From sequence record OR896827.1: 50,759 nt of DNA. One strand, 5' to 3'. Positions 1,570-36,629 of the stretch are shown piece by piece (the first letter of the stretch is position 1; every line of letters begins with the position of its first letter). Source of the DNA: Escherichia phage MikeNSara. Position numbers and translations under genes: made by a program. The notes under the pieces are model-generated. The model searched no databases and was not told the DNA's origin. It saw only the letters and a program-made list of their open reading frames with translations.

Positions 1570-1585
1570 CACTAATTGCTAAAAA
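1566..1585 (+). repeat. degenerate copy of the 20-bp motif (no canonical spacer/-10)
   Basis: ATAGCACTAATTGCTAAAAA overlapping terminase stop TAG; followed by TATAAT after only 4 nt and then an intrinsic terminator. Confidence 0.5.
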
Positions 1586-1598
1586 GTTATATAATCAA

Positions 1599-1624
1599 GG
1601 CTGGATTTTTCCAGCCTTTTTTAT
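1599..1624 (+). terminator. intrinsic terminator
   Basis: GGCTGGA-loop-TCCAGCC stem followed by T-run. Confidence 0.6.
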
Positions 1625-1639
1625 TATGGAGATTTGACG

Positions 1640-2932
1640 ATGAGCGAAAAAACAAGGCTAGTTAAGGCCGATGGATACAACGAGATTTTCAAGGGTAGCA
1701 AGGGTAATGGGCGTGTAGAGTTGCCTTTCTTTATGCAAGGGTTCGAATACACCACGCACGCTGATTTTTACATTCGCGACGGCCTAGCAAAACGAATTAT
1801 CGACGTTGTTCCAGAAGAAATGGTGACGCCTGGATTTAATATTGATGGCGTGGAAGATGAGGAGAGTTTTAGATCTTTGTGGGATGAGAAGCGACTAAAC
1901 GATAAAATCATTGATGCGCTTTGCTGGTCGCGTCTTTTTGGTGGCGCTGCAATCGTGGCAATCGTTCAGGATGGCAGGTCGTTAAAGTCACCTGTAGCGC
2001 CTGGTGCAATCCTTGAAGATGTTCGCGTTTACGATCGCTTTCAGGTTAGGGTAGAAAAGCGCGAAACTAATCCACGCAAGGTACGATATGGTGAGCCATT
2101 AATTTACACCATTGCACCTGGTGCCGACTTGCCAGAATACCAGGTTCACTATTCGCGAGTCTGTATCATCGACGGTGAGCGGCTACCGAATCAGCGACGT
2201 CAGTCAAATGATGGTTGGGGTGAGTCGATCTTGAATAAGCGACTTGTTGAGGCCATTTGTGATTATAACTACTGCGAAAACTTAGCAACTCAATTGTTGC
2301 GACGTAAGCAACAGGCGGTATGGAAAGCTAAAGGTCTTGCTGATCTTTGTGATGATGATGATGGTGTTAACGCCGCACGTTTGCGCCTTGCTCAAGTTGA
2401 TGATGAGGGTGGCGTAGGCCGTGCGATCGGCATTGATGCGGAAGATGAGGAATATGATGTTTTAAATTCTGATATTTCCGGCGTCGATTCATTCCTGGAA
2501 AAGAAGATGGATCGCATTGTATCTCTTTCCGGCATCCATGAAATCATCCTCAAAAATAAGAACGTTGGCGGTGTTAGCGCGAGCCAAAACACGGCGCTTG
2601 AAACCTTCTACAAGCTGATCGATCGAAAGCGAAAGGAAGAATACAAACCAATCCTTGAATTTCTGATCCCGTTCCTGATTCAAGAGGAAGAATGGAGTAT
2701 TCAGTTTGCGCCGTTAAGCGTTCCCAGCGAAAAGGACCAGGCCGAGATCTTGAACAAGAATATTGATTCTTTGAGCAAGGCTATTGACGGTCAATTCATG
2801 GATACAGAGGAGGCGCGCGACACATTGCGAGCCATTGCGCCTAACGTTAAACTAAAAGACGGCAATAACATTAAATTACCTGAGCAGGACGTAGAGCCGG
2901 AGCCAGGAACAACCGAGGGTAACGATCAATGA
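1640..2932 (+). CDS. portal protein
   Basis: ~430-aa ORF directly after terminase; start moved from TTG 1634 to ATG 1640 with GGAG 8 nt upstream; acidic C-terminus typical of portals; position in morphogenesis order. Confidence 0.7.
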   Translation: MSEKTRLVKADGYNEIFKGSKGNGRVELPFFMQGFEYTTHADFYIRDGLAKRIIDVVPEEMVTPGFNIDGVEDEESFRSLWDEKRLNDKIIDALCWSRLFGGAAIVAIVQDGRSLKSPVAPGAILEDVRVYDRFQVRVEKRETNPRKVRYGEPLIYTIAPGADLPEYQVHYSRVCIIDGERLPNQRRQSNDGWGESILNKRLVEAICDYNYCENLATQLLRRKQQAVWKAKGLADLCDDDDGVNAARLRLAQVDDEGGVGRAIGIDAEDEEYDVLNSDISGVDSFLEKKMDRIVSLSGIHEIILKNKNVGGVSASQNTALETFYKLIDRKRKEEYKPILEFLIPFLIQEEEWSIQFAPLSVPSEKDQAEILNKNIDSLSKAIDGQFMDTEEARDTLRAIAPNVKLKDGNNIKLPEQDVEPEPGTTEGNDQ

Positions 2933-3684
2933 TAGTGAAAGGCGTCGTTAAACAATGGCGCTTTCCTGAAGCAAGCGAGCGGCAATTGCGCCGCTCAATT
3001 CAGGAGGCGATAAGGGATCTTGTTGTGCTGATGCGCAGCAAAACAAAGGAAATGAAATTTGACGCGGACACCGAAGAAATCAACGCCGCAGAGGATGAGA
3101 TTAGTAGCTTCGCGTTAAAGCTAATAGCTGGCATCGCCGCATCACTTCCGGCTATCGGCCTTGCTGTTTATAAATTCAACGCAAAGCAATTTATTAACGT
3201 AGCGAAATCAACGGGAGGTAAGTCAAATTCAGCCGTTATCATCCTTATGGCTATTGGGGCCAATGCGAATGAGAGTTGGTATAGGACGCTATACGGTCAA
3301 TGGCATGACATGACGATCGCATCTCTTCAAAAACTATTTGGAAACATCGTGTCTGACTGGTCAACCAATATTAGATCGGCAAACTTTCGCGGAATGAGAG
3401 ATAGTCAGGTTAATGAATTGGCTGGTAAGAGATTTGCAGTGTATAGCTCTTGGGGTAAGACAAGGGCTGAAAATATCATAGGCGCTTGGAATAGTAGACT
3501 CATGCGCCAGCGTCTTTATGATGCAAAAGTAACTCATTATTTTTGGCATGGTATGCTTGATGACAGAGAACGATTGCAGCATGTACAATGGGAAGGTAAG
3601 CGCATTGCGCTAGATTCTGAACATGATTTTCCTGGTGAGCCTTTCGGTTGTCGTTGTTGGGCCATACCAGATTGGAACAGTTAA
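2929..3684 (+). CDS. head morphogenesis protein (Mu F / SPP1 gp7-like)
   Basis: ATGA overlap with portal stop; C-terminal HxxH...GxxxCRC pattern resembles Mu-F minor head protein family; position after portal. Confidence 0.65.
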   Translation: MIVKGVVKQWRFPEASERQLRRSIQEAIRDLVVLMRSKTKEMKFDADTEEINAAEDEISSFALKLIAGIAASLPAIGLAVYKFNAKQFINVAKSTGGKSNSAVIILMAIGANANESWYRTLYGQWHDMTIASLQKLFGNIVSDWSTNIRSANFRGMRDSQVNELAGKRFAVYSSWGKTRAENIIGAWNSRLMRQRLYDAKVTHYFWHGMLDDRERLQHVQWEGKRIALDSEHDFPGEPFGCRCWAIPDWNS

Positions 3685-3694
3685 GAGGTGTTAA

Positions 3695-4810
3695 ATGAAG
3701 GCAAAACAAAGATTTGATAGCGCCAAAGTAAAGGCGCACTTTGATGATAACGGTTTTTTAGTTGATCGCCCTATCGTGGCGCGAATTGGTTTACAAGTCT
3801 ATCAGACTCCTTTCGGTGAGCGCAGAGAATTTCGTCCGGCGTCCGAAGTATTCAAGGCCGACTCACTCGCCACCTTCGCAGGGAAGCCAGTCACGGTTGG
3901 TCACGTTACGGTAACTCCAGAAAACGCCGAAAAGGTTGTGGTTGGTTCTTGTGCTGGCGCTGGTGTGCCGAACGGGATCGGCGTAGAGGTTCCGTTAAGC
4001 ATTTACTCAAAACGAGCAATCGAAAGCGCGAAGAAGCGAGACACGGCTGAAATTTCAGTTGGTTATACATCGGTTGATATTGATAAACCAGGCTGGGGCA
4101 ATAATAAAACTGGTGAGTACGTTTTCGATGAGGATGTTAGCGAAGACTGGAAACCTGATTCTCCTGATTGGGTTAAGTTTGATGCAATCCAGACTGAAAT
4201 CAAGGTAAACCACATCGCGTTAGTTTTCCGAGGTCGAGCTGGCATTGCAAAATTAAACCTTGATAGCCAGCAAGATTTTCCGTATAGTGACGATGTTATT
4301 AACAACAAAGAGGATCAAATCATGACTGTAAAAATTAAACTGGATGGCGCTGTAGAATTTGATGTGCCGAAAGCAGTTGCGGATCACATTGAAACGCTTA
4401 AAGCTGATGCCAAAGCACAGAAAGAAAAGGCGGACAGCCTGGAAGCTGAGCGAGACGCACTGCAAACCAAAGTAGATGGCATTCAGGATCAGATTGATGC
4501 CGCAGTCAAGAAGGCCAAAGAAGATGCCGAGCAATATGCTCAATTAGTGGCAGACGCTAAAGAGTTAGGCATCAAGTGCGACGGCCTGGATGCGAAAGCA
4601 ATCAAGGTTGCATACATTAAAGAAGTTATGGGCAATGACGTTTCCGATAAAACTGATGCCTATATCGAAACAGCTTTCGACATCGCCAAAAACTCTGATA
4701 AAATGGCGGCGCAGCGTAAGAGCATTAAGGGTGACTCTTTCGCGAATGAAAAACAGGATGAAGCAGGTTCTAAGCTGAATCCTAACGCTCGTTTTGAGAA
4801 ACTGAAATAA
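3695..4810 (+). CDS. putative scaffold / prohead core protein
   Basis: RBS AAGAGGTG; C-terminal third is K/E/A/D/Q-rich predicted coiled coil typical of scaffolds; sits between head-morphogenesis and capsid genes. Confidence 0.5.
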   Translation: MKAKQRFDSAKVKAHFDDNGFLVDRPIVARIGLQVYQTPFGERREFRPASEVFKADSLATFAGKPVTVGHVTVTPENAEKVVVGSCAGAGVPNGIGVEVPLSIYSKRAIESAKKRDTAEISVGYTSVDIDKPGWGNNKTGEYVFDEDVSEDWKPDSPDWVKFDAIQTEIKVNHIALVFRGRAGIAKLNLDSQQDFPYSDDVINNKEDQIMTVKIKLDGAVEFDVPKAVADHIETLKADAKAQKEKADSLEAERDALQTKVDGIQDQIDAAVKKAKEDAEQYAQLVADAKELGIKCDGLDAKAIKVAYIKEVMGNDVSDKTDAYIETAFDIAKNSDKMAAQRKSIKGDSFANEKQDEAGSKLNPNARFEKLK

Positions 4811-4822
4811 GGAGTAATTAAA

Positions 4823-5332
4823 ATGGCTAAAATTGGAGCAAGTTATTTTGACACTATGGCGCGTGCGCTTCCTGGTCAGGTATCCGACACGTCAGCATAT
4901 AACATCGACGGCGCTTGCGTTCTTGACAAGGAAGACGGCATCCCAATCCTGGTTGGCGTGGCTGTTAAGCTAAAAGGCGTTGACTCAATGGGTAATAAGC
5001 TGATCGACGCTATTTCTGGTGGTGGTGATGTTCCTTATGGCGTTGGCGTTCGTTCGCACTTTCAAACCACGACTGATAATGGTCGAATGGTTTATGAGGC
5101 TGGCGGCGGAATCAACGTTATGACCGAGGGCCGTGTTTGGATGATTGGCGATGATTCCGATAAAAGCAAAAAGCCAGAATATCGTGAGCCTGTAAAAATT
5201 GATGAAAACTCTGGCAAGGTGAAAAGTGCTGGCGCTATCAATACAAACTGGGTTTACACTGGCGATAAAACCACTTTTGGAACTGGTAATAATATGTTGA
5301 CTTTGTTTGAAGTTCAGGTCTTCCCAAGCTAA
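4823..5332 (+). CDS. capsid-associated structural protein (decoration-like), paralog 1
   Basis: RBS GGAG; shares YNIDG and RG.VW motifs with the next ORF; followed by intrinsic terminator. Confidence 0.45.
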   Translation: MAKIGASYFDTMARALPGQVSDTSAYNIDGACVLDKEDGIPILVGVAVKLKGVDSMGNKLIDAISGGGDVPYGVGVRSHFQTTTDNGRMVYEAGGGINVMTEGRVWMIGDDSDKSKKPEYREPVKIDENSGKVKSAGAINTNWVYTGDKTTFGTGNNMLTLFEVQVFPS

Positions 5333-5336
5333 AATC

Positions 5337-5362
5337 AAGGCGCTCGCTTGAGCGCCTTTTTT
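5337..5362 (+). terminator. intrinsic terminator
   Basis: AAGGCGCTC-GCTT-GAGCGCCTT stem plus T6. Confidence 0.7.
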
Positions 5363-5382
5363 ATTATGTAAGGAGAAATGAA

Positions 5383-6165
5383 ATGGCTAAAGATTATTCA
5401 TCTGTTATGGGTCTTTCTTGTCCTGGTTGTTTGGTTGATTCTACTCGCTACAATATTGATGGTACTGGCGTTTGTGGTTCTGAATCGATCATTGCTGGTA
5501 AGGTTGTTTTCTTTAAGGAGAGAATCGGCGGTTACAATATATTTGTTGACCACAAAGAGGAGGACGCTGTGGTTGCGGGTGTTGCGCTAAGGAGCAACAT
5601 AACAACGACAGTTAACGAGGAAGACGGGTATTCCGACTACAAGGAAGGAGACGCCATCAACATTTTGACAAGAGGTGTTGTATGGTGTGTAACTCAAACA
5701 ATTGAATCTCCCCCTGAGCATGGGGATCTTGTTTATGTTAACAATGATGGTTTTGTAGCAAAGAGTGATGGCGATGAAATCGTCGATGGCTGGATTTTTA
5801 CTGGTGACTTCTACAAGTTTGATGAAACAATAAACATAGTCGGAGTCAGAATAACGCCGCTTTATCATAGAAAATATCTTCTCACTGGTGCGATCATTGA
5901 GGCTGAAAATGGATACATAGAGGGAACAGAGACGATTGATAACGTACAATTAAAGGTGACAGTTGTTCCGACTTGGGCCGATGACAAAACTGGTCAGTGG
6001 ACAATTACAAATCCACAAGATCCAATGGTTGCCAGTGTTAGTCGAACAGGCCTTGTTGTTCCTACTGGTGTGGGAGGTAGAGTTAACGTCAACTGGACTG
6101 CTAATGATGGTTCTGGAGTTGCTGACCAGTTTGATATTGTATTTACGAAAACCGCTGGCGAATAA
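5383..6165 (+). CDS. capsid-associated structural protein with C-terminal Ig-like domain, paralog 2
   Basis: RBS AAGGAG; N-terminal half paralogous to 4823..5332 (YNIDG, RGVVW); C-terminal beta-rich T/V/G region resembles Ig-like (Big_2-type) decoration domains. Confidence 0.45.
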   Translation: MAKDYSSVMGLSCPGCLVDSTRYNIDGTGVCGSESIIAGKVVFFKERIGGYNIFVDHKEEDAVVAGVALRSNITTTVNEEDGYSDYKEGDAINILTRGVVWCVTQTIESPPEHGDLVYVNNDGFVAKSDGDEIVDGWIFTGDFYKFDETINIVGVRITPLYHRKYLLTGAIIEAENGYIEGTETIDNVQLKVTVVPTWADDKTGQWTITNPQDPMVASVSRTGLVVPTGVGGRVNVNWTANDGSGVADQFDIVFTKTAGE

Positions 6166-6190
6166 CTAATAGCATAAAAAAACATTGCAC

Positions 6191-6209
6191 GTTTAACAAA
6201 AAGTGCTAT
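6191..6209 (-). repeat. 20-bp motif copy in reverse orientation inside late operon
   Basis: GTTTAACAAAAAGTGCTAT on + strand (complement of motif), immediately upstream of terminator 6216..6241; no good -10 at expected position. Confidence 0.5.
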
Positions 6210-6215
6210 CATCTA

Positions 6216-6241
6216 GGCCGTTACATTTAACGGCCTTTTTT
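6216..6241 (+). terminator. intrinsic terminator
   Basis: GGCCGTTA-loop-TAACGGCC stem plus T6. Confidence 0.65.
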
Positions 6242-6255
6242 ATGGAGGAAGCAAA

Positions 6256-7227
6256 ATGACTAAAAAATATGATGAACTAGATGCTACGATTGTGGCGAAT
6301 CATTTGCAGATTCAGGGTGTTAAGTCCGACGCTTCTGATATGGGTATTTGGACCGCTCAAGAGCTACACAAGATCCGCTCTACCGCATACGAGAAAGAGT
6401 ATCCGGCAGGTTCCGCGCTTCGCGTATTCCCTGTAACAAACGAGCTTTCTGATACTGACAAGACTTTCGAATATCAGACTTTTGATAAGGTTGGCTACGC
6501 GAAAATTATCGCCGACTACACCGATGATCTGCCGACTGTGGACGCGTTGATGACTTCTGAGTTTGGCAAAGTGTTCCGCCTGGGTAACGCTTATCTGATC
6601 TCCATTGATGAGATTAAAACAGGTCAGCGAACTGGCAAGAGCCTGTCAACTCGCAAGGCTAACGCTGCGCAAAATGCGCATGATCAGTTGATTAACTTCC
6701 TGGTGTTCAAAGGTTCCAAGCCTCATAAGATCGTTTCCGTTTTCGATCATCCTAACCTTACGAAAATTGTTTCTAAAGGCTGGATGAGCCAGGACGGCAA
6801 TACCAAGTTCCCGGAAGTGGCAAGCGATGAACTGGAGGCCGCAATCGAAACGATCGAGGAAGTAACCAAAGGTCAGCACCGCGCGACCAATATCCTGATC
6901 CCGCCGTCCATGCGCAAAGTCCTGACGGTTCGAATGGAAAATACCACTGAAAGTTATCTGGAATACTTCCAGAAGCAAAACGGCGGTATCACTATCGACT
7001 CTATCGCAGAGCTTGAGGATATTGACGGCAAAGGTACGAAAGGTTGCTTGGTTTACGAAAAAGATCCAATGAACATGAGCATTGAGATTCCAGAAGCGTT
7101 TAACATGCTTCCGGCGCAGCCAAAAGACCTACATTTCAAGGTTCCTTGCACTTCCAAGTGTACTGGCCTTACGATTTATCGTCCGTTTACGATGGTGCTC
7201 ATTACCGGCTTGAAAAAAGCTGAGTAA
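6256..7227 (+). CDS. major capsid protein
   Basis: 323-aa ORF with strong RBS GGAGG, bracketed by intrinsic terminators (high-expression unit); position in head module. Confidence 0.65.
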   Translation: MTKKYDELDATIVANHLQIQGVKSDASDMGIWTAQELHKIRSTAYEKEYPAGSALRVFPVTNELSDTDKTFEYQTFDKVGYAKIIADYTDDLPTVDALMTSEFGKVFRLGNAYLISIDEIKTGQRTGKSLSTRKANAAQNAHDQLINFLVFKGSKPHKIVSVFDHPNLTKIVSKGWMSQDGNTKFPEVASDELEAAIETIEEVTKGQHRATNILIPPSMRKVLTVRMENTTESYLEYFQKQNGGITIDSIAELEDIDGKGTKGCLVYEKDPMNMSIEIPEAFNMLPAQPKDLHFKVPCTSKCTGLTIYRPFTMVLITGLKKAE

Positions 7228-7238
7228 TTAGATAACAT

Positions 7239-7269
7239 GGGGAGCCTTAAGGGTTCCCCTTTTTTTTTA
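7239..7269 (+). terminator. intrinsic terminator after major capsid gene
   Basis: GC-rich hairpin followed by T10. Confidence 0.7.
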
Positions 7270-7286
7270 TTTATGGAGTGCATAAA

Positions 7287-7553
7287 ATGAGCAAAAATTT
7301 AAAACTTAAAGTAACTGGCGTTTGCATGATTATTATGGACGGTAAGCGTTATCATCCTGGTGATGAAGTTGAAATTGAATCTGAACGCATTAATGATTCC
7401 GCAATTGAATACCTGATCGCTCGCGGTGATGTGGAAGTTAAAGACAATTCCGAAATTAACGAGCAAATCAAGGCGAAAGCGGAGAAGAAGCGCAAAAAAG
7501 ATCCTACCGAGGGCAAGAGCCGCAAAGAGCTAGAGGACGGCGGCGAATATTAA
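7287..7553 (+). CDS. hypothetical protein (lysine-rich C-terminus)
   Basis: ORF after capsid gene; start moved from GTG 7278 to ATG 7287 with GGAG upstream. Confidence 0.45.
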
Positions 7554-7558
7554 TAATT

Positions 7559-7580
7559 GGGGCGCTTATGCGCCCTTTGT
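7559..7580 (+). terminator. possible weak terminator
   Basis: GGGCGC-TTAT-GCGCCC stem with short T-run. Confidence 0.4.
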
Positions 7581-7599
7581 CACATCTGGAGAAAACAAA

Positions 7600-8019
7600 A
7601 TGGTAGATGAATTTTACACAGACGCTGAAATCATGCAGCAAATCGTAAAGTTAGCGCCGCCAATGCAACAAGTTGATCCCGATTTAATTGTGGCATGGAT
7701 TGAGCTTGCTAAAGAGTTTGTTTGCAAAAAGCGGTTTAAAAACTCATACCCGAAAGCGGTTGCGCTTTACACTCTTCACCTTATGACCTTAGACGGGGCA
7801 ATGAAACAGGAAGGTGAAAGCGTAGAAAGCTATTCCCGCCGCGTCGCCTCGTTCACTCTGACTGGTGAGTTTAGTCAGACGTTTGATCGAATCTCTTCCG
7901 ATACAAGCGGAAAGCAGATCCGACAAACGCCGTGGGGCAAAATGTACGAAGTGTTAAACCGTAAGCACGGTGGCGGTTTTGGCCTTGTAACTGGATTGCG
8001 CCGGAGATGTTGCCGATGA
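7600..8019 (+). CDS. head-tail connector-like protein
   Basis: ORF with RBS; position between capsid and tail genes. Confidence 0.45.
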
Positions 8020-8387
8020 ACTACAATGAGATTGCAAGAATGGCTACGGCTGGGATTAACTTTTTCAGCGACGCTAACGGTATGTTTAAGTGCATCACGC
8101 AGCAGGGTGGAGTTGAGATTATCGGCGGAGAGGAAGTTACCAAGCCGGAGATTTCAGTGATGATAAAGGGGCTTGTTAGATCCCCTAGAACTAGAGAGGT
8201 TGACGGTGAAACAATCCGAGTAACCGACAAGTTGGGGATATTCACCAATGAAACTGAGATCAAAAATGGTTATCAGATTGAAATTGATGGCGAACGTTAT
8301 GTTGTCGTTGAAGCAAGACCAGTCAGGCAGACTAACATCACGGCGGCTTATCGTCCGATATTAAGGAGGATTGCTGTGCATGGCTGA
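8016..8387 (+). CDS. head-tail adaptor-like protein
   Basis: ATGA start/stop overlap with upstream gene; position. Confidence 0.45.
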
Positions 8388-8823
8388 TAACTATAAGATC
8401 AGGGAATTTCACGGTGATATAAGCAGGTGGATTGATTCAGTAAGCAGCGGCCTTGTTGATTGCGTTGAAATGTTCGCGACAAACGTCCACGAGGATCTTG
8501 TAAATCGCTCGCCAGTTGATACGGGCCGATATAAAGCCAACTGGCAGATAACAGCAAACAAGCCGCCGCTATATGCGCTCAACCAATACGATCGCGATGG
8601 TAGTAAAACCATTGCAGAAGGCAAGCGAGCAATATATGCAATCATGCGTGGCGGTGGCGCGGTGCGGTCAATCTATTTTTCAAACATGCTCATTTACGCC
8701 AACGCGCTTGAATACGGTCATTCAAAACAAGCGCCGTCCGGCGTACTTGGAATCGTGGCGGTAAAGCTGCGATCTTATATGGCTAAGGCAATAAAGGATT
8801 CGAGGGCAAAAAATGCACTATGA
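8380..8823 (+). CDS. neck / tail completion protein (HK97 gp10-like)
   Basis: RBS AGGAGG 9 nt upstream of ATG 8380; NRSPVDTGRYKANW motif typical of HK97 gp10 family. Confidence 0.5.
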   Translation: MADNYKIREFHGDISRWIDSVSSGLVDCVEMFATNVHEDLVNRSPVDTGRYKANWQITANKPPLYALNQYDRDGSKTIAEGKRAIYAIMRGGGAVRSIYFSNMLIYANALEYGHSKQAPSGVLGIVAVKLRSYMAKAIKDSRAKNAL

Positions 8824-9214
8824 TTTAATGTTGGCGGCAAGAAAGGCGCTGGCGGCTGAATATGAATCACGATTTAAGATAGCCTATGAAAACGTTGATT
8901 TTGTGCCGCCTGGAGATGGTTCTATGTGGTTAAAATTTAACTACATGGAAGCAGACACGGATCGCATATCTCTTGATAGAAAATGTGTTTCTTATATCGG
9001 TTTGGTTCAGGTTGGCATTGTCATTCCTCCTGGCGGTGGCACTGATAAAGCGCGTTTGCTGGCTAAAGAGATTGCGAGATTTTTCTATGATGGTAGAATG
9101 CTTGAAACTGGCTATATTAGCGAGGGGGCAAACGTCCACGCATTACTAAAAAGTGAAACAGGTTGGTTATTGCCGATCCGTTTCAGTGTTAGGCTTGACA
9201 CAAAGGAGGAATAA
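8813..9214 (+). CDS. tail terminator-like protein
   Basis: ORF overlapping upstream stop; position immediately before major tail protein. Confidence 0.45.
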   Translation: MHYDLMLAARKALAAEYESRFKIAYENVDFVPPGDGSMWLKFNYMEADTDRISLDRKCVSYIGLVQVGIVIPPGGGTDKARLLAKEIARFFYDGRMLETGYISEGANVHALLKSETGWLLPIRFSVRLDTKEE

Positions 9215-9216
9215 TC

Positions 9217-9879
9217 ATGCACTTGCCTAATGGTTCTCAAATTTTCATCGGCGTTAATATGGGTGAGCCTATTCAGGCTACGGCTATTTCAAATGCTGAT
9301 GATCCTGTTTTTACGACTGCAAACACTCAAAGCATCAAAAAAGGCGCTTATGTTCTTATTGAAACATCTTCCTGGGGCAAACTTGTTAGTCGCGTGCTTC
9401 GAGTTAAGGAGGTATCAGATGATGCAAGCGTTACTCTTGAGGGTGTAAGCACGAAAGACACCAATGTTTTTCCGGCTGGTTCTAATACCGCAACTTTCCG
9501 AGAAGTAAAATCTTGGGTAGAGATTCCTTGCGTACAGGATCTTGCGCAGGACGGCGGCGAGCAACAGTATTACACTTATCAGTGTTTGGCTGATGACCAG
9601 GAGCAGCAGTTACCGACCTATAAGAGCGCCGTTTCTCTTACCTACACTTTCGCGCATGAATATGACAACCCTATTTATCCGATCTTGCGCGAGGCTGAGG
9701 AATCCGGCGACGTAACCGCTTTGCGTATGTACGTTCCGAAAGCTAAAGAGATGCGTTGCTGGGCTGGCGTATTGTCCTTTAATGACATTCCGCAAACCAC
9801 TATGAACGAAATGGAAACTGTTTCCCTTTCCGTATCTCTGAAAGGTAGATTTACGTTCTTATCTTCCGACATCAATTAA
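9217..9879 (+). CDS. major tail protein
   Basis: RBS AAGGAGGA; 220 aa; followed by strong intrinsic terminator and then the chaperone with frameshift site (canonical V-G-GT-H order). Confidence 0.65.
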   Translation: MHLPNGSQIFIGVNMGEPIQATAISNADDPVFTTANTQSIKKGAYVLIETSSWGKLVSRVLRVKEVSDDASVTLEGVSTKDTNVFPAGSNTATFREVKSWVEIPCVQDLAQDGGEQQYYTYQCLADDQEQQLPTYKSAVSLTYTFAHEYDNPIYPILREAEESGDVTALRMYVPKAKEMRCWAGVLSFNDIPQTTMNEMETVSLSVSLKGRFTFLSSDIN

Positions 9880-9882
9880 AAC

Positions 9883-9906
9883 AAGGGGCGTTGCGCCCCT
9901 TTTTTC
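9883..9906 (+). terminator. intrinsic terminator after major tail protein gene
   Basis: AGGGGCG-TTG-CGCCCCT stem plus T6. Confidence 0.75.
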
Positions 9907-9944
9907 ATTCCTGTAAAATCAATCTATCAAATAAATCAATTCCA

Positions 9945-9964
9945 CTTTTAACAAAAAGTGCTAT
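9945..9964 (-). repeat. 20-bp motif copy in reverse orientation inside late operon
   Basis: CTTTTAACAAAAAGTGCTAT on + strand between major tail terminator and chaperone gene; -10-like TAGATT weak. Confidence 0.5.
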
Positions 9965-9978
9965 AAGGAGATCTTGAG

Positions 9979-10296
9979 ATGGCAAAGATGAAACTAACGT
10001 TAGGCCCACTGCCTGATTTTAAGCTACCTGTTTCTTTCGTGCTTCCAAATGGTGATGAGCAAGTTATTGTTTTTACCGTGCGCCACAAGAAGGCAAGCGA
10101 GATTCACGAACGATACACGGCAGAAAAGCCGATGAGCGACGTAGAAATGATCACCTTCCTTGCTTCCGGTTGGGATCTGGAAGATGAATTTAACGAGGAA
10201 AACGTTGCTAAATTGCTGGATTATTACCCTTCTGCGTCATTATCGCTGACTGGTCATTATATGAAAGCACTTGCGGGGCAGCGGGTAAAAAACTAA
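9979..10296 (+). CDS. tail assembly chaperone (lambda G-like)
   Basis: RBS AAGGAG; 105-aa acidic protein immediately upstream of tape measure; ends just after slippery heptamer A_AAA_AAC. Confidence 0.65.
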   Translation: MAKMKLTLGPLPDFKLPVSFVLPNGDEQVIVFTVRHKKASEIHERYTAEKPMSDVEMITFLASGWDLEDEFNEENVAKLLDYYPSASLSLTGHYMKALAGQRVKN

Positions 10297-10613
10297 AGCG
10301 GGCGGTTTACCTGTTTTACCTCAAGCCGCCAACTGACGCACAATTAGAGGCCGTCGGCCTATCCCGTTCAGACTACGAAGGGGAGGAGCCGCCGGAGGTA
10401 ATTTTTGATGAATCAATGTTTCAATCTTGGGATCTGTTTTGCGCTATGCAGACGCAATGGAGGTCGACTAGCGGCAGTGTGTATGGGTTCGACTATAACG
10501 TTTTGCCTATGCTTTTTGACATTTACAAGATTGAGGATCGGGAGATGGCGCTAAATGATTTGCGCATCATGGAACAAAAGGCGCTAGAAATGATTCATTC
10601 AAACAAAACATAA
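9979..10613 (+). CDS. tail assembly chaperone frameshift product (lambda GT-like, -1 shift at 10287..10293)
   Basis: The -1 frame is open from 10293 to stop at 10613 with no intervening stop; heptamer AAAAAAC sits 1 nt before the 0-frame stop; GC-rich hairpin potential just downstream. Confidence 0.55.
10287..10293 (+). other. -1 programmed ribosomal frameshift slippery heptamer A_AAA_AAC
   Basis: X_XXY_YYZ heptamer in 0-frame of chaperone gene, 1 nt before its stop; -1 frame open to 10613. Confidence 0.6.
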
Positions 10614-10634
10614 GCGCCGCAAGGCGCTTTTTTA
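10612..10634 (+). terminator. intrinsic terminator after chaperone frameshift ORF
   Basis: AAGCGCC-GCAA-GGCGCTT stem plus T6. Confidence 0.65.
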
Positions 10635-10652
10635 ATATCTGGAGGTTTTAAA

Positions 10653-13334
10653 ATGGCTGAGAAATACGCTGGCCTAACGCTAGGCGTTGACGTGTCGCAG
10701 GTCAATAATGCTGTTAAATCATTGCAGCAATTCAAGAAGGCAAACGACGACGCAAAAAAAAGCGTTAATGAATTTGTTGATTCTGAGGTTGTGGCGCGAC
10801 AGCAAGCTAAACAGTTTGCCGAAGAATTGGCGCGCCAGAAAGCAGAATTTAAGAAAATCCAGGAGTCAATTGATCCCACCGCGTCAAAGATGGATAAGCT
10901 GCGAAAGGCAGCGACACAGCTTGATGCGCTATGGAAAAAGGGTATTGTTCCTGATGAGACTTTTTTTGAGCTTGGGGCAATTCTTGAGACACAGCAAAAC
11001 AAGCTGATCGCAACCAAAAAAGCGATGACAGAGGAAGGCCGCGCGGCGCTTGAGGAATCAAAGAACAAAGCGCGTGCAGCGGAAGAGGCTAAAAAATTCA
11101 TCCAGGCTTTGCGTGAGCAGGAAGAAGCAGCCGGAAAAAGCAAGTCTGAATTGCTGGAAATGAAAGCGGCACAGCTTGGAGTTAGCCAGGAGGCAGCACC
11201 TTACATCGCAAGACTGAAAGAGCAGGAAAAGCAGATCCAAAAACTTGGGATTTCTACAGGCCAATACAATCAAGCAATGAAGCTATTGCCAATGCAGATC
11301 ACAGACGTGGTGACTTCACTTGCTTCTGGTATGCCTGTTTGGCTGGTCGCAATCCAGCAGGGCGGACAGATTAAGGATTCTTTTGGGGGCGCATCCAATG
11401 CTTTAAAAGCGTTGCTATCTTTCCTTAATCCGGTAAACGTGGCGTTTGGCTTACTTTCCGGCACGCTGGCAATTGCTGCATATAATGCCTACAAAACACA
11501 GACAGAGTTTGAGGCAATTAAAAAAACCGTTCAGGAAACAACTGGCTTGACTGGTGATTTTGCCGAAAAGATTGCTACCGGAATCCAGGAGCTTTCCGAC
11601 AAGACAGGCGAAAGCGCAGAAGATCTGGCAAAGGCTTACATCACCACGAAAGACGGCGCGAGCGAGGCGATTAAAAAACTGGTTGACGTTGGCATGACTT
11701 ATGATGATGCAAAAAAGAAAGTCAACGAGTACAAAGGCGCGTCTAGCTTTGTCAGCTTGAATAACGAAATTGCAAACCACAAAAACAAAGTCCTTGAGTT
11801 GGGCGACTCGTGGTATGAAGTTTTGAAAGCGAAGCGTGATTACGCTTCCCCGTCCGGCGGCCTGTTAGGTAAAGAGCTTGGCTATGTTAATCCTATGCTT
11901 AAGTTTGCACTTAACACTTATGAAGACATTGGAAAGGTCGTAAAAGATGCGAATAAGGACATGGCTGAACGAGCGGAGCGAATCGACAAAGAAAACCTTG
12001 CCTTGAACAGAGTGAGAGCAGCACAGGAGGCTTTAAACAAAGCCATTGAAGATCAGAAGGGCGTGGCGCGTTCGGCTGATGAAGAACTGAAAAAGCGCGC
12101 GGCTGAAAACGTGGAGTTCAGACGCAAAGAGCTTGAGGAGATCAAGAAGCAGGAGCAGAAAAAGAAAGAGGCTAAAGGTGGAATAGTTCGCGGCCCTACT
12201 GAGCAGCTTGATAAAGAGTTGTACGTTTTAAAAGCGCAACTGGAAACTCTTAAAGAGCATCGCACTGTTAACGATGTTATTTCTCGCCAGCGTAAATCTT
12301 TATGGAGCATCGAAAAGCAGATCGAGATCCTGGAGGGTGCGCAGAGCAAGCGTAAATTGACAGGAGCGGAACAGGCGCTACTAAACGAGCAAAAAGCCGT
12401 TCTTGAAATGGCAAGGCAAAAGGCTGAATTAGGGGATCAGATTGTTTTGCAGGAGCGCAAAAACAAGCTGGAGCAAGATAGCATTAAGTTTATCCGTGAA
12501 ACGCAGGCGGCTATTGATGTGCTTGGCCTTAAGCAACTTGGCTACACTGAAAAGCAGATCGAGCGTGAGCTAGAGTTACGCAAGCTGCGCACCGACTACG
12601 AGGCGCAAGGAGGAAGCGTTAGCGATGAAGTTTTTCAGCAAATGGAGGCGAAACTTAAGCAGTATTATCAGACACAGGATGAGGTTCAAGGCAACTGGTT
12701 GGCAGGAGCAAAAAACGCATGGGAGCTATTCGCGGAAGATGCAAACAATGCCTATGGCAATGTTCAGCAGATCGCAAGCGAGGCGTTAAACGGCCTTACA
12801 AACCAATTAGCGAATTTTATCGCTACTGGCAAGGCAAACTTTAAAGACTTCTCGACGGCTATCATCAAAATGATTATTCAGATGATCACGAAAATGGTTG
12901 TCTTTAATGCGTTATCTGGCCTGATGGGTGGTCAAACCTGGACGATGGGGAGCTTGCTTAAGAACATTGGCGGATTTGCTGGCGGTGGATACACTGGCGA
13001 CGGCGGGAAGTATGAGCCAGCCGGAATTGTCCATAAAGGTGAATTTGTCATGACGAAGGAGGCGACGCAGCGTATCGGGGTAGGCAACTTGTACCGCATG
13101 ATGCGAGGCTATGCTAACGGCGGCGCGGTTGGTAGTTCCGGCTATACTGGCGGTGGAGTTGTCACTGGTGGAGCACCTCAATTTAACATCGGTGGGATTG
13201 ATGTTAGCATCAATAACGGCAGCGATCCGAAGGGCATCGAAACTGGCGTTAAGATGATCTTTACTGATATGATTAAACGTTCCTGTATGCAGGGCGGAGA
13301 GGTTTACGAATTTGTTATGAGCAAGCGAGGTTGA
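10653..13334 (+). CDS. tail tape measure protein
   Basis: 893 aa, long coiled-coil A/E/K/Q-rich N-terminal region, central hydrophobic segment, glycine-rich C-terminus; follows chaperone pair. Confidence 0.85.
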   Translation: MAEKYAGLTLGVDVSQVNNAVKSLQQFKKANDDAKKSVNEFVDSEVVARQQAKQFAEELARQKAEFKKIQESIDPTASKMDKLRKAATQLDALWKKGIVPDETFFELGAILETQQNKLIATKKAMTEEGRAALEESKNKARAAEEAKKFIQALREQEEAAGKSKSELLEMKAAQLGVSQEAAPYIARLKEQEKQIQKLGISTGQYNQAMKLLPMQITDVVTSLASGMPVWLVAIQQGGQIKDSFGGASNALKALLSFLNPVNVAFGLLSGTLAIAAYNAYKTQTEFEAIKKTVQETTGLTGDFAEKIATGIQELSDKTGESAEDLAKAYITTKDGASEAIKKLVDVGMTYDDAKKKVNEYKGASSFVSLNNEIANHKNKVLELGDSWYEVLKAKRDYASPSGGLLGKELGYVNPMLKFALNTYEDIGKVVKDANKDMAERAERIDKENLALNRVRAAQEALNKAIEDQKGVARSADEELKKRAAENVEFRRKELEEIKKQEQKKKEAKGGIVRGPTEQLDKELYVLKAQLETLKEHRTVNDVISRQRKSLWSIEKQIEILEGAQSKRKLTGAEQALLNEQKAVLEMARQKAELGDQIVLQERKNKLEQDSIKFIRETQAAIDVLGLKQLGYTEKQIERELELRKLRTDYEAQGGSVSDEVFQQMEAKLKQYYQTQDEVQGNWLAGAKNAWELFAEDANNAYGNVQQIASEALNGLTNQLANFIATGKANFKDFSTAIIKMIIQMITKMVVFNALSGLMGGQTWTMGSLLKNIGGFAGGGYTGDGGKYEPAGIVHKGEFVMTKEATQRIGVGNLYRMMRGYANGGAVGSSGYTGGGVVTGGAPQFNIGGIDVSINNGSDPKGIETGVKMIFTDMIKRSCMQGGEVYEFVMSKRG

Positions 13335-13336
13335 TA

Positions 13337-13687
13337 ATGAAGCTGGATCAGTTTAAGTGGTGTACGCAGGTTCAGAATGGCGGCGGGGCCATGACGTCAT
13401 CGAATAACGATCGAGAGATTGCATTCGGTAACGGATACACACAGGTAGCATCTGGAGGTTTTAACACAATCCGGCGAGAGTTTAGCATTGTTTACGTTGG
13501 GCTTGACTACAGAGATGTTGTCAATTTCCTGAATGAGCACAGGCTAAAACCTTTCTTGTGGATCATGCCTGATGGAAGCCCTGGATTGTTCAGGGTGAAA
13601 AGCGGCAGCGTCGGCCTTACTCCACTGTCGCCAACCGTTCAGGAAGTAAAAGCCACTTTTACGGAGCAATTTACATCAATGCAGTAA
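13337..13687 (+). CDS. minor tail protein (lambda M-like)
   Basis: Start moved to ATG 13337 just after tape measure stop; size and position match lambda gpM. Confidence 0.65.
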   Translation: MKLDQFKWCTQVQNGGGAMTSSNNDREIAFGNGYTQVASGGFNTIRREFSIVYVGLDYRDVVNFLNEHRLKPFLWIMPDGSPGLFRVKSGSVGLTPLSPTVQEVKATFTEQFTSMQ

Positions 13688-13691
13688 TTTA

Positions 13692-13716
13692 AAGCCGCCT
13701 TTGTGCGGCTTTTTTC
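13692..13716 (+). terminator. intrinsic terminator
   Basis: AAGCCGC-loop-GCGGCTT stem plus T6. Confidence 0.65.
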
Positions 13717-13749
13717 TTGATGTTACAATGAGCAAAAAGGAGGTAGAAA

Positions 13750-14511
13750 ATGGCTAATAAAGAATCAGGTAGAGTTGAATTTGAGAACTGCCTACAAAGT
13801 TTGTACCCAGGAGAAATTATAACGCTTGTAGAGATTGACGGGACGAAGTTCGGGGCAAATATTTACCGATTTCACAATGAGAACATCTCTTATACTGCCG
13901 AAGAATTAATGCAAGCGCAGCAAACCGGAATCTTGCCGCCGAAAGATATTATTTTCCAGGGTGAGGTTTACGGAGCGCGGCCTTTCGGTGTGAGCGGGAT
14001 TAACTTCACAAGTAACGGCAGGGCAGATAAGCCTCAGCTTATAGTGTCAAACCTTGACAGCAGGGTTAGCGCCATGATCAGAAATTACAATGGCATGATG
14101 CAAGCAAAGGTGACTTTCTGGATTACGGCAAAGGAATTTATAGGAGAAGGCGGAGCAATCAAAGATGGCGCTTACAGAAAATTGGTTTATTACATTGAGC
14201 GCCCAAGCCAGTATAATAGAGAGGTGGCGAAATTTGATCTGACATCGCCTTACGATATGGATGGATTAATGATCCCGCCGCGCATCACTCAAAGCGTTTG
14301 CTATTGGGCGCAAAGGGGGTGGTACAGGAGCGGAAAGGGTTGCTCTTATAACGGATCGGCAATGTTCGATAAAGACAATAAGCCAGTAACAGATCCATCA
14401 CAAGACTATTGCGCCGGAACTGTAACGGCTTGCAAATTGAGGTTCGGTCAGCAAAACGAATTGGATTTCGGCGGTTGCGCGGTTGCTTCACTGCTACGGA
14501 GGAATCAATAA
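13750..14511 (+). CDS. minor tail protein (lambda L-like)
   Basis: RBS AAGGAGG; ~250 aa; position between M-like and K-like genes. Confidence 0.7.
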   Translation: MANKESGRVEFENCLQSLYPGEIITLVEIDGTKFGANIYRFHNENISYTAEELMQAQQTGILPPKDIIFQGEVYGARPFGVSGINFTSNGRADKPQLIVSNLDSRVSAMIRNYNGMMQAKVTFWITAKEFIGEGGAIKDGAYRKLVYYIERPSQYNREVAKFDLTSPYDMDGLMIPPRITQSVCYWAQRGWYRSGKGCSYNGSAMFDKDNKPVTDPSQDYCAGTVTACKLRFGQQNELDFGGCAVASLLRRNQ

Positions 14512-15242
14512 TGATTAGTGCAAAAATTAAACTTGAAATAATGCAGCACGTTAAAGAGGAATACCCTAAAGAGGCTTGCGGCGTCATAACTCAAAAGTCA
14601 CGGGTACAGAAATATCACCGCATAACCAACGTGCATGACGATCCAGAAAATCATTTTGAAATGGACGCTGTAGAATACGCTGAATCGCTCGACAAAGGCG
14701 AATTAATCGCGGTGGTGCATTCCCATTGCGGGGATGGTGCTAGCACGATACCGAGCGCGCACGACTCATGTATGTGCGATGAAATGGGTGTGTCGTGGAT
14801 TATAGTGTCATGGCCCGAAGGTGATATGAGAATTGTCGAGCCGCAGGAGAGGCCGCTTATCGGTCGCCCGTGGTCGCTTGGGTCGTTCGATTGCTGGGGT
14901 CTTATCATGGCGTGGCATAAACAGCACGGAGTAGTATTGAATGACTTCCGAAAGCCTTACGAGTGGTGGAAGTCAGAATATGGTGAAAATCTTTACCAGG
15001 ATAATTATTTAAAAGAGGGATTTATTGAAACTAACGAGCCTCCAAAGCCTGGCGATATGGTTATCATGCAACTATCATCGCCAGTCTGGAATCATGCGGG
15101 TATATATTTGGGAAACAACCAGCTATTACATCATGCGTTTGGAAAGCTATCTCGCATTGACTTGTATTCTGGATGGTATCAGGAGCACACTGTAAAAATT
15201 TGCCGACATAAGGATCTGAAATATGACATTGAAAGTAATTAA
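14511..15242 (+). CDS. tail assembly protein (lambda K-like; MPN/JAB + NlpC/P60 domains)
   Basis: Start moved from upstream non-ATG extension to ATG 14511 (RBS GGAGG); N-terminal HSH...D metalloprotease-like motif and C-terminal Cys/His NlpC-P60-like region (FDCWGL...H). Confidence 0.7.
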   Translation: MISAKIKLEIMQHVKEEYPKEACGVITQKSRVQKYHRITNVHDDPENHFEMDAVEYAESLDKGELIAVVHSHCGDGASTIPSAHDSCMCDEMGVSWIIVSWPEGDMRIVEPQERPLIGRPWSLGSFDCWGLIMAWHKQHGVVLNDFRKPYEWWKSEYGENLYQDNYLKEGFIETNEPPKPGDMVIMQLSSPVWNHAGIYLGNNQLLHHAFGKLSRIDLYSGWYQEHTVKICRHKDLKYDIESN

Positions 15243-15819
15243 GCTATCTGGTTCCCTGGGGCGTAGATTTGGCGTCTTTCACAAAATGGCGGTTGACTCA
15301 TACCCCGAAGCAATACGCGCGCTATCTTCCCAGGTTGAAGGGTTCAAAGACTACATGCAAAGCGAAGTAGGATCGCGCATGAAGTATGCTGTATTCGTTG
15401 ACGGTAAAAACGTTGGTCAGCATGATGAAAAATCATGGAAGTGCGCGCGAGAGGTTAGAATAATTCCCGTTCCAACTGGTTCTAAGTCCGGCGGCCTGTT
15501 CAATGTTGTTTTTGGCGCTGTAATTATGGCTACTGCGTTCATTACTGGTGGTGCAAGCCTTGCGGCTATGGGCGCTTTTGCATCTTCCGCATTTATGATG
15601 GGTGGTGCTATCGCGCTGGGGGGTGTCATGCAAATGATTTCGCCGCAGCAGGGCGGAATGAAACTGCAAAGCCAATCAGCAGAAAACAGGCCTTCTTACG
15701 CTTTCGGCGGTGCAGTAAATACCACGGCGGCAGGTTATCCGGTTCCTTTGCCATATGGATATAGGACGGTAGGCGGCGCGATCTGGTCGGCTGGCAGCTA
15801 CGCAGAAGATAAAGCATAA
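15223..15819 (+). CDS. tail assembly protein (lambda I-like)
   Basis: Overlaps K-like gene 3' end; glycine/alanine-rich hydrophobic C-terminal half as in gpI. Confidence 0.65.
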   Translation: MTLKVIKLSGSLGRRFGVFHKMAVDSYPEAIRALSSQVEGFKDYMQSEVGSRMKYAVFVDGKNVGQHDEKSWKCAREVRIIPVPTGSKSGGLFNVVFGAVIMATAFITGGASLAAMGAFASSAFMMGGAIALGGVMQMISPQQGGMKLQSQSAENRPSYAFGGAVNTTAAGYPVPLPYGYRTVGGAIWSAGSYAEDKA

Positions 15820-15825
15820 AAAAAT

Positions 15826-25484: not shown

Positions 25485-25504
25485 ATAGCACTTTTTGCTA
25501 ATGA
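25485..25504 (+). repeat. 20-bp motif copy (variant) next to tail-fibre start, no canonical -10
   Basis: ATAGCACTTTTTGCTAATGA; expected -10 position reads TTTCAA. Confidence 0.45.
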
Positions 25505-26558: not shown

Positions 26559-27035
26559 TTAGCTATTCGTGCTGTTATCACCTTTGTAGAATCGTCCGCC
26601 TGGTTCGTAGTCTGAATTTTTGACTACGCGCAACATTTCGTATTTGTCGCAACGGGTAGTAAGAGGCTTGCCGTTAGAATCAAACCGCAGATCTGGACGA
26701 CAAAATGATGCGCGGTATCCTTTGCACCCATTATATTTGTAGTCGTTATGCACCTTTTGTGCTCCAGCGGCTGAAATCATACCACGCTTTCGCCACTGGT
26801 TAACGACTTGCTGAGATACGCGCAGACGTCGGGCCATAGCAGGAACACCGCCGTAATACTCGATCAGAATGTCAAGGCGAGATTTCAGACTTGCTTTTAC
26901 CTCATCTCGCAGGATAAGAAATCCGGTTCGGTGTTTTCGTGGCTTTTTGTCTTTACCTCGTCGCGTTCCGTTGTTACCGTTAATAGTGCGCTTGTCGATC
27001 TCACCAGTAGATACTGCAATTCGTGCATCTTTCAT
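26559..27035 (-). CDS. HTH DNA-binding protein (Cro/YdaS-like)
   Basis: RBS GAGGTG; central helix-turn-helix GGVPAMARRLRVSQQVVNQWRKRG; basic N-terminus. Confidence 0.5.
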   Translation of the reverse strand: MKDARIAVSTGEIDKRTINGNNGTRRGKDKKPRKHRTGFLILRDEVKASLKSRLDILIEYYGGVPAMARRLRVSQQVVNQWRKRGMISAAGAQKVHNDYKYNGCKGYRASFCRPDLRFDSNGKPLTTRCDKYEMLRVVKNSDYEPGGRFYKGDNSTNS

Positions 27036-27046: not shown

Positions 27047-27090
27047 ATAGCATTTTTTGTTAAAACAGTTTATTGTAATGAGTCTATTAT
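27047..27090 (+). promoter_or_regulatory. motif-type promoter cassette (20-mer + 18-bp spacer + TATTAT)
   Basis: ATAGCATTTTTTGTTAAAAC followed after 18 bp by TATTAT; helicase ATG 27123 downstream. Confidence 0.55.
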
Positions 27091-36246: not shown

Positions 36247-36629
36247 AGATATTTGCCCTCAAAAAGATAACAGCCGCCAGCAGAGAATCCGACCTCTTCA
36301 CGGTACAGGTTCCAGCGGTCGCCGCACTCATCAAAAACATAACCCGCAACGCTTCCAAGCGGTCGCCCTTTCTCGATCTGGTATCGCTTGCCCTGCTTAA
36401 AGTGCTTTTTGCACGGCATGTTATGATCTACAAACGTGCAAAGAACGGTTTTTGTGTTAATGGCGCGGTAATCATCTCGGTTTGCTGGAAGCCAGCGGCT
36501 ACCCTTAACAAGCGTCTTAACCTGGAACTCTTCCACCTCGATCACATCATTACTTCCTGCAATCTTCTGATAAACCGTTTTAAAACGTCCTTTCATCAAT
36601 ACGTTGGTTTCATTACAGATAACATTCAT
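36243..36629 (-). CDS. hypothetical protein
   Basis: RBS AAGGAG; ~30 nt downstream of motif promoter 36659..36702. Confidence 0.5.
   Translation of the reverse strand: MNVICNETNVLMKGRFKTVYQKIAGSNDVIEVEEFQVKTLVKGSRWLPANRDDYRAINTKTVLCTFVDHNMPCKKHFKQGKRYQIEKGRPLGSVAGYVFDECGDRWNLYREEVGFSAGGCYLFEGKYL

Follow-up and report, generated by a model that had tools for sequence, protein, structure and literature searches.

Escherichia phage MikeNSara (sequence record OR896827.1) is a T1-like coliphage of the family Drexlerviridae. In its 50,759-nucleotide (nt) sequence, which was analysed at full length and is called the window below, two copies of an intergenic repeat common to T1-like phages are reversed relative to the late genes that surround them. 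One copy (site 1) precedes the major capsid protein gene and the other (site 2) precedes the tail assembly chaperone gene. Both may well be functional repeat copies placed inside late sigma70 promoters, where they would serve as late timing operators for one dimeric reader, likely a Cro-like protein of the phage. Judging from sequence comparison, we favour this reading with a confidence somewhat above even.

Two reversed copies of the T1-family repeat among the late genes

The late morphogenesis genes occupy positions 1-19323 on the + strand, in the order large terminase, portal, protease, decoration proteins, major capsid protein and connectors onward. After the connectors come the major tail protein gene (9217-9879), the tail assembly chaperone gene, the tape measure gene and the genes for tip proteins. 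The segment 5300-10400 has 98% identity to Escherichia phages FritzSarasin and tonnikala, and 92-98% identity to many other T1-like coliphages. The two genes that follow the reversed copies are listed below.

6256..7227, + strand: major capsid protein gene; labelled major capsid/head protein in records of 98% identity
9979..10296, + strand: tail assembly chaperone gene, the first of the tape-measure unit; Pfam Phage_TAC_4, E = 5e-31

The 18-mer TTTAACAAAAAGTGCTAT is found on the + strand at 6192-6209 (site 1) and 9947-9964 (site 2), matching at 18/18 in both cases. An initial annotation of this DNA had reported two reversed copies beside terminators, which is borne out, with its start positions (6191 and 9945) off by 1-2 nt. 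Both sites are intergenic, and the distance to the downstream ATG is 47 nt at site 1 and 15 nt at site 2. The repeat has the form ATAGCACnnnTTGnTAAAA, and its core is made up of an imperfect palindrome, TAGCA-N5-TGYTA. The window contains 20 matches at up to 3 mismatches, where 0.12 would be expected by chance. In its forward reading, ATAGCACTTTTTGTTAAA, the repeat follows the direction of about 16 early genes, which lie on both strands between 20.5 and 48 kb. Since these other copies read ATAGCACTTTTTGTTAAA along their own gene, sites 1 and 2 are reversed relative to the + strand late genes.

In phage TLS, 21 copies of a 21-nt intergenic direct repeat, aaATAGCACnnnTTGnTAAAA, were reported, with similar ones in T1, Rtp and Rogue1 (PMC11447400). 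These repeats were described as following the direction of transcription, only three sigma70 promoters were found, and stoperators, enhancers and UP elements were offered as candidate roles, while the function was listed as an open question (PMC11447400). Sites 1 and 2 both match the published consensus at 18/18, and both break the published rule, as they are reversed to transcription and nearer to the ATG than about 76 nt. In the TLS table, DR7 is placed on the negative strand (15044..15024), adjoining terminator T35 (PMC11447400). DR7 is the homologue of site 1, and the TLS repeats belong to the same sequence family. TLS has no copy at site 2. A scan of the whole window against Rfam matched no family.

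Site 1 and the major capsid promoter

On the + strand, site 1 is embedded in the order AAAAAAA-CA-TTGCAC-g-TTTAACAAAAAG-TGc-TATCAT. This fits a sigma70 extended -10 promoter, here named P(mcp), with 3/6 matches in the -35, a 16-nt spacer, TGc and TATCAT, and the fit is kept in 42 variants. Its elements are as follows.

6176..6182, + strand: A-tract, UP-element-like, upstream of P(mcp); AAAAA invariant in 42 distinct variants from 73 loci
6185..6190, + strand: -35 of P(mcp), TTGCAC; TTG invariant, with TTGACG, TTGACC, TTGAAC and TTGCAC in relatives
6192..6209, - strand: site 1, reversed repeat; exact match, kept in 73 of 80 loci including T1
6204..6212, + strand: extended -10 of P(mcp), TGc TATCAT; TG and TAT..T kept in all variants

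The reversed repeat makes up the 16-nt spacer together with TGn and the first half of the -10. Relative to a predicted start at about 6219 (6217-6221), it covers about -27..-10 and its palindrome is centred near -18. The arrangement was compared among 79 related loci retrieved via the capsid protein plus T1 (80 in total). It is present in 73 of them, and the A-tract, TTG, TG and TAT..T are invariant down to 55% capsid identity (Webervirus-like loci), while the flanks vary. Consensus promoter scans gave hit totals at chance level; their counts were not taken as evidence, and conservation was used instead. The T1 counterpart, TTGACG-16-TGcTATTAT, is the best + strand promoter match in the late region of T1. 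For this place, the T1 GenBank record (AY216660) annotates a promoter at 15062..15089 (ttgacg...tattat) in the gap between the decoration-protein and capsid genes, with a terminator after it. The annotated promoter is a prediction of the PePPER software, and the record is silent on the spacer being a reversed repeat.

The sequence of a promoter spacer is normally free to vary. In P(mcp), however, 16 spacer bases are near-invariant across variants whose flanks diverge, and in one clade the spacer has been swapped as a unit for the other canonical (GAA) repeat class, TTTAGCAATTCGTGCTAT. Because the spacer is conserved beyond promoter needs and the class switches as a whole unit, the comparison argues that selection acts on the repeat itself at site 1. 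The simplest alternative is that no factor is involved, and the 18-mer is kept merely as a good spacer with TGnTAT at site 1 or as an A-rich leader at site 2. The reversed repeat does provide the TGn and TAT of the site 1 -10, three relatives hold TATCAT although the end of their repeat is changed (GTGCTTATCAT; TAAGCAC for ATAGCAC), and Webervirus retains the promoter with a degraded repeat. Against this stand the constrained spacer and the switches to another canonical class, as well as two further facts: the site 2 copy has no part in the + strand promoter, and an identity of 18/18 to a 20-copy family cannot come from convergence on promoter needs. We therefore give this alternative very little credence. 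The idea that the copies are decayed relics, which the initial annotation had put forward, has to be dropped as well, because both copies are perfect, both are kept in T1 and at 73 of 80 (site 1) and 20 (site 2) loci, and class switches concern the whole unit.

Regarding the distribution of these variants, the TAAGCAC form of the repeat also occurs in T1 at 2830. The GAA class (…CAATTCGTGCTAT) replaces the TTT class in reversed copies of several relatives, at 9762-9779 in locus L038 and at about 5941-5958 in loci L039-L045, and the exchange is a four-base switch made as a unit.

The initial annotation had also considered both copies as antisense promoters with weak -10 positions, GCTATT at site 1 and TAGATT at site 2. 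At site 1, GCTATT stands at another spacing than that of the repeat family. The minus-strand hexamer at the 20-nt family spacing is TATTAG in the window, and TAnnnT is found there in 2 of 34 variants; by this comparison, site 1 is not an antisense promoter. MerR-type activation from the P(mcp) spacer was tried and rejected too, for it needs an overlong spacer of 19-20 nt and no variant departs from 16 nt (unless the GTGCTTATCAT form of three variants is taken to contain an extra base, which would make 17 nt).

Site 2 and the tail-chaperone promoter

Site 2 lies in the leader of a second predicted late promoter, P(tac), which would serve the tail chaperone and tape-measure unit.

9891-9896, + strand: -35 of P(tac), TTGCGC; within the loop and 3' arm of a terminator, TTGC kept in the loop in all relatives
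9914..9919, + strand: -10 of P(tac), TAAAAT; 17 nt past TTGCGC, predicted start about 9926
9921..9929, - strand: extended -10, TGa TAGATT; exactly 20 nt from the repeat, predicted backward start about 9914
9947..9964, - strand: site 2, reversed repeat; exact match, +22..+39 of P(tac), 0-1 nt from the ribosome-binding site
9965-9970, + strand: ribosome-binding site of the tail chaperone gene, AAGGAG

P(tac) fits a sigma70 promoter layout (TTGCGC-17-TAAAAT) that is conserved with and without the repeat. Its -10 is TAnAAT in all 19 distinct variants that bear the repeat, and TAATAT or TAAAAT in TLS-like and other E. coli-phage lineages without the site 2 repeat. The copy is kept in position and orientation in 20 related loci and in T1, and its distance to the -10 is fixed at 27 nt in 19/19 variants, with varying bases between them. 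No promoter is annotated at the counterpart in the T1 record. Conservation in related phages had been proposed as a check by the initial annotation, and on this count T1 and dozens of relatives retain both copies at the same place and in the same orientation.

On the minus strand of site 2, TAnnnT is found 20 nt from the repeat in 19/19 variants, with varying middle bases and a TG in most of them. This is the spacing of 16 early promoters (see below), and the sequence resembles the TTTGATAAAGT subclass, for example the early promoter at 48107. The predicted backward promoter is back-to-back and interleaved with P(tac). An antisense promoter at site 2 is plausible from this layout, and TAGATT, standing at the family spacing within a conserved TGnTAnnnT, is better supported than the initial annotation had thought.

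These data raise the alternative that the main role of the reversed copies is antisense transcription or interference against late genes, the overlap with + strand promoters being secondary. It could hold for site 2 alone and is compatible with the model favoured here. At site 2 the full early layout is on the minus strand in every variant, and the middle of the hexamer is free, as expected for a -10. The TA of this hexamer is not kept in lineages without the repeat. In most relatives, the reverse side of the site 2 hairpin has no U-run, so that the RNA would enter the tail-tube gene. However, site 1 has no conserved minus-strand -10, and at both sites the minus strand shows neither a CATCGAAAC-like leader with a ribosome-binding site nor a conserved open reading frame (ORF), nor an Rfam family. 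Moreover, the minus-strand -10 columns at site 2 overlap the predicted + strand start region TAYCAAA, which is akin to the CATCGAAAC stretch of early promoters, so a part of their conservation may be owed to another cause. In all, we consider antisense transcription as the main role possible but rather doubtful.

Three further candidates at site 2 were rejected. An antisense coding gene is contradicted by the longest minus-strand ORFs in relatives, which range from 11 to 151 amino acids (aa) and differ in their starts. As a + strand promoter of its own (TTCCAC-16-TGcTATAAG), site 2 would have no conserved hexamer and would start in or past the ribosome-binding site. A hairpin in the P(tac) leader RNA (CACUUUU/AAAAGUG) is predicted in the window, but the flanking CAC is found in only about 8 of 19 variants.

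Terminator hairpins beside the late promoters

Both late promoters are combined with hairpins of the intrinsic terminator type.

6215..6241, + strand: hairpin (6215-6236) and T-run at P(mcp); -14.6 kcal/mol for read-through RNA
9883..9907, + strand: terminator past the major tail protein gene (hairpin 9883-9901); -13.4 kcal/mol, loop and 3' arm hold TTGCGC

Sites for a factor that acts on late transcription or on termination were among the roles named by the initial annotation. The first part fits best, with the copies inside conserved + strand promoters of the sigma70 type, while the link to termination finds no support. As an alternative to the promoter reading, a factor at the copies would modulate the adjacent intrinsic terminators as a termination or antitermination site. 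Sites 1 and 2 and a forward copy at 1566 all have a hairpin with a T-run no more than 50 nt away. However, of the 9 late intergenic gaps that exceed 25 nt, 8 have a terminator-like hairpin, with or without the repeat, and the adjacency is therefore not special to sites 1 and 2. At site 1 the copy comes before the hairpin, at site 2 after it, and the approximately 16 early copies, whose genes are arranged in tandem, have no terminators. Several relatives have a short U-run or none; the site 1 hairpin often has no T-run, and the site 2 hairpin of T1 has none. A role in termination is accordingly highly improbable.

The hairpin at site 1 begins 2-3 nt past the -10 in all relatives among E. coli phages, and the changes in its stem are compensatory. 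The predicted P(mcp) start (about 6219) falls inside its 5' arm, and RNA from 6219 folds at -2.8 kcal/mol. Because the start is inside the 5' arm and the folding energy drops from -14.6 to -2.8 kcal/mol, P(mcp) transcripts could escape the hairpin. According to the predicted folds, the structure at 6215-6241 can stop transcripts from upstream while those of P(mcp) pass.

The same design, a promoter followed by a hairpin, is seen at 1590-1618 before the portal gene (promoter and hairpin together 1566-1618), with the energy going from about -15 to about -3 kcal/mol. Terminators that hold the -35 of the next promoter recur as well. The loop and 3' arm of three late terminators contain TTG(C/T)GC, and TAnAAT stands exactly 17 nt further on (9883-9919, 13694-13729 and 15826-15861); besides P(tac), these give TTGTGC-17-TACAAT at 13701-13729 and TTGCGC-17-TATAAT at 15833-15861. 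T1 has this overlap of terminator and promoter at 22793-22830 and 24970-25007 (locus L080).

Early promoters keep a fixed distance between repeat and -10

Past the 16 early copies, a TAnnnT hexamer stands at exactly 19-20 nt (CATAAT, TATAAT, TATAGT, TACATT and similar). No -35 hexamer was found at the proper distance in the early repeat-type promoters of the window. Downstream of the -10 follow five variable bases, a CATCGAAAC-like stretch, a ribosome-binding site and ATG. The layout is likewise found in T1 and in Klebsiella phage NJR15, and the repeat is identical in E. coli and Klebsiella phages. If the start is 7 nt past the -10, the palindrome is centred at -42 of the early promoters. Class II activators, such as CRP, FNR and lambda cI at PRM, bind around -42.

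Some early promoters have additional structure. Between 29536 and 48124, the 20-nt spacer between repeat and -10 often forms a G+C-rich hairpin, the sequence of which differs by promoter (for example 29554-29579, 30624-30649, 36659-36684, 42047-42072 and 46831-46856), with stems such as GCCAGGC/GCCTGGC, TGGCGC/GCGCCA and CGCGGGG/CCCCGCT. At 38884, 44931, 45302 and 48107, the hairpin is found around the -10 instead. The early promoters at 30605-30666 and 33806-33867, located on opposite strands, have 89% identity over 62 nt, including the spacer hairpin and leader, and this suggests a recent duplication or conversion of the whole promoter module.

Other copies in the window and a Cro-like regulator gene

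In addition to sites 1 and 2, several copies are associated with late genes or with a candidate regulator.

1566-1583, + strand: forward copy in the gap between terminase and portal genes
15875-15895, + strand: degenerate forward copy AACAGCACAAAAGGTTAAAAG, directly before the ATG of a J-like tail gene
25485..25502, + strand: third copy reversed relative to a late gene; within the tail-fibre leader at +5..+22, past a terminator and TGcTATTAT
23332-25467, - strand: tail-fibre gene; Pfam Peptidase_S74
27047..27064, + strand: copy common to two divergent promoters; forward at -42 for the helicase gene, reversed at +16..+33 in the leader of the regulator gene
26559..27035, - strand: gene for a Cro/CI-type helix-turn-helix protein of 158 aa

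The order sigma70 promoter, short leader, reversed repeat, ribosome-binding site and ATG recurs, being found at site 2 as well as at the tail-fibre and regulator genes. The regulator promoter is TTTAAA-17-TATAAT. It is divergent from and interleaved with that of the helicase gene (27047-27114), and the -10 hexamers of the two have TATTATA in common. T1, whose record annotates a minus-strand promoter at 36483..36511, and Klebsiella phage NJR15 both keep this arrangement. The regulator protein is 57-64% identical to the proteins of NJR15 and T1, the latter labelled a transcriptional regulator in the T1 record; it matches YdaS_toxin and P22_Cro in Pfam, below the cut-off, and Cro-like structures in the PDB (E = 6e-4). 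The reversed repeat in the leader of the Cro-like regulator's own gene looks like autoregulation. As the layout at its own gene has this resemblance, the Cro-like protein is the first candidate for the reader of the repeat.

As separate observations, the tail-fibre gene stands on the minus strand among early genes and has its own terminator, an extended -10 (TGcTATTAT) and the reversed repeat in its leader. The degenerate copy at 15875-15895 has counterparts at 25021-25038 in T1 and in DR8 of TLS.

The closeness of the reversed copies to ribosome-binding sites (0-9 nt at site 2 and at the tail-fibre and regulator genes) could also be read at the RNA level. Forward copies in read-through mRNAs of early genes would then pair over 18 nt with late leaders and lead to a block of translation or to cleavage; as the early genes are in tandem and have no terminators, these forward copies would be transcribed. 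However, forward copies also stand right before a late ribosome-binding site or ATG (the T1 small terminase gene and the J-like gene), so short leaders explain the closeness. Site 1 is outside the transcript of its own promoter, and the palindromic core together with the use of both orientations points to recognition of double-stranded DNA. Pairing between RNAs is hardly credible on this evidence.

A reader of host origin is a further alternative, and Lrp is its leading candidate. In this case, early promoters would fire at once on infection, and through the late copies capsid and tail expression would be tied to host nutrition. The consensus of E. coli Lrp is YAGHAWATTWTDCTR, with a criterion of at most 3 mismatches (PMC5554404). 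Each copy agrees with it in 12-13 of 15 positions, and the match is in phase with the palindrome (e.g., 6193-6207 and 9948-9962); 85 positions in the window (0.17%) score this high, and 21 of them are the repeat. The occurrence of the same repeat in E. coli and Klebsiella phages would be in line with a host protein too. However, the match rests on two 5-nt half-sites, and the centre misfits. Lrp sites are degenerate and usually clustered, whereas the repeats are single and near-invariant over 18-20 nt including asymmetric flanks. Furthermore, Lrp was picked after the motif had been compared with many consensus sequences, so that one match is unsurprising. We regard Lrp as quite an unlikely reader.

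A position-read operator as the proposed mechanism

In the mechanism that we propose, one dimeric DNA-binding protein, most likely the Cro-like regulator, would read all copies via TAGCA-N5-TGYTA, and the outcome would be set by the position of the copy. At -42 of promoters without a -35, binding would activate early genes. In the core (capsid, portal) or in the leader (tail chaperone, tail fibre, regulator) of a self-sufficient sigma70 promoter, it would repress, and late promoters would be held down until the activity of the regulator falls. At site 2, polymerase drawn to the backward promoter might in addition compete with the late promoter and exclude it, with a non-coding antisense RNA running into the tail-tube gene. 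Our guess is that release could come from titration of the autoregulated protein by replicating genomes. Where transcripts start, that a protein binds, which protein it is, in which direction it regulates and how repression ends are all predictions from the DNA sequence.

Several points weigh against this reading. The direction of regulation is deduced from position alone, and an early activator that represses late promoters would need a release step. The -35 of site 1 in the window has just 3/6 matches (TTGCAC), and a simple consensus scan missed P(mcp). In Webervirus, the site 1 copy is degraded at palindrome positions (ATATCACGAATCGTTAAG) despite intact early copies, and TLS-like lineages are without the site 2 copy yet keep P(tac). 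This decay at site 1 and loss at site 2 mean that both copies are dispensable, and that the promoters either predate the operators or do not depend on them. Forward copies are present in late promoters too (1566-1583, 15875-15895, and upstream of the T1 small terminase gene), and for this reason the position of a copy, rather than its reverse orientation, may be what matters. Finally, a literature search found no transcript map, promoter study or transcriptome of a T1-like phage; its single match for Drexlerviridae dealt with T5-like transcriptomics.

In a wider form of the model, one operator, read by position, would set the whole temporal programme of T1-like phages, including the backward promoter and release by dilution. 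We think this unlikely. In its boldest version the reader may be host Lrp, and the phage would be timed by a feast/famine signal.

Relation to known regulatory systems

In phage lambda, paQ is a CII-dependent antisense promoter inside the late regulator gene Q; it delays late expression and carries TTGC-N6-TTGC repeats. The backward promoter predicted at site 2 is similar in being of the activator type, in having no -35 and in running against late genes. Unlike paQ, which is in a coding region of a temperate phage, it is intergenic, belongs to a virulent phage and would be interleaved with a late promoter.

Opposite effects of one site on overlapping promoters are exerted by CRP at gal P1/P2, by lambda cI at OR (PR/PRM) and by phi29 p4 at A2b/A3. 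By analogy with them, a copy near -42 would activate, a copy in the core or leader would repress, and interleaved divergent promoters are predicted at the regulator/helicase pair and at site 2. The present case differs in that one operator would be spread over about 20 promoters of a whole lytic programme.

The stoperators of mycobacteriophage L5 have been raised as an analogy for the TLS repeats (PMC11447400). They have in common with the T1-family repeat many copies of one asymmetric site, located in short intergenic gaps and with a set orientation to transcription. However, L5 stoperators block elongation and belong to a lysogenic repressor, whereas this phage family is virulent and most copies have a fixed distance upstream of a -10. 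Late copies are also found in both orientations, and the repeat does not fit an L5-type stoperator (PMC11447400).

The repeat family, the DR7 copy of TLS and the promoter prediction for the T1 capsid gene were already public. The TLS paper gives neither the 20-nt spacing to a -10 nor the contrast between early and late positions, and it has no discussion of the reversed copy (PMC11447400). The sequences, positions and conservation given here are direct observations, and among them the following have no description in the public record: the spacer of the capsid promoter is a reversed repeat, a second reversed copy is located at fixed distance in the tail-chaperone leader together with a conserved backward -10, and early copies hold a fixed 20-nt distance to the -10. 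The placement of late-gene copies at what would be repressing positions is not described there either.

Apart from the repeat, two A+T-rich non-coding stretches 20 kb apart, at 20713-20792 and 40988-41048, have a common 61-nt direct repeat with 70% identity. The former has an internal 19-nt periodicity, and the gaps that contain the two stretches are unusually long. A role as an origin or some other control region is conceivable.

The late region also offers compact portable parts, namely terminators with the -35 of the next promoter in the loop, and promoters that start inside a terminator stem. For the T1-like family, the function of the 21-nt repeat was listed as an open question (PMC11447400), and a model in which the repeat is read by position makes it directly testable. 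Such a model rests on the odd copies in conserved late promoters, the fixed early spacing without a -35 and the copy in the regulator leader, and it names the predicted starts (6217-6221 and 9926 on the + strand, 9914 on the - strand) and a candidate protein. Even if the model is wrong, there would still be a gain in annotation, with two late promoters of a classical phage family.

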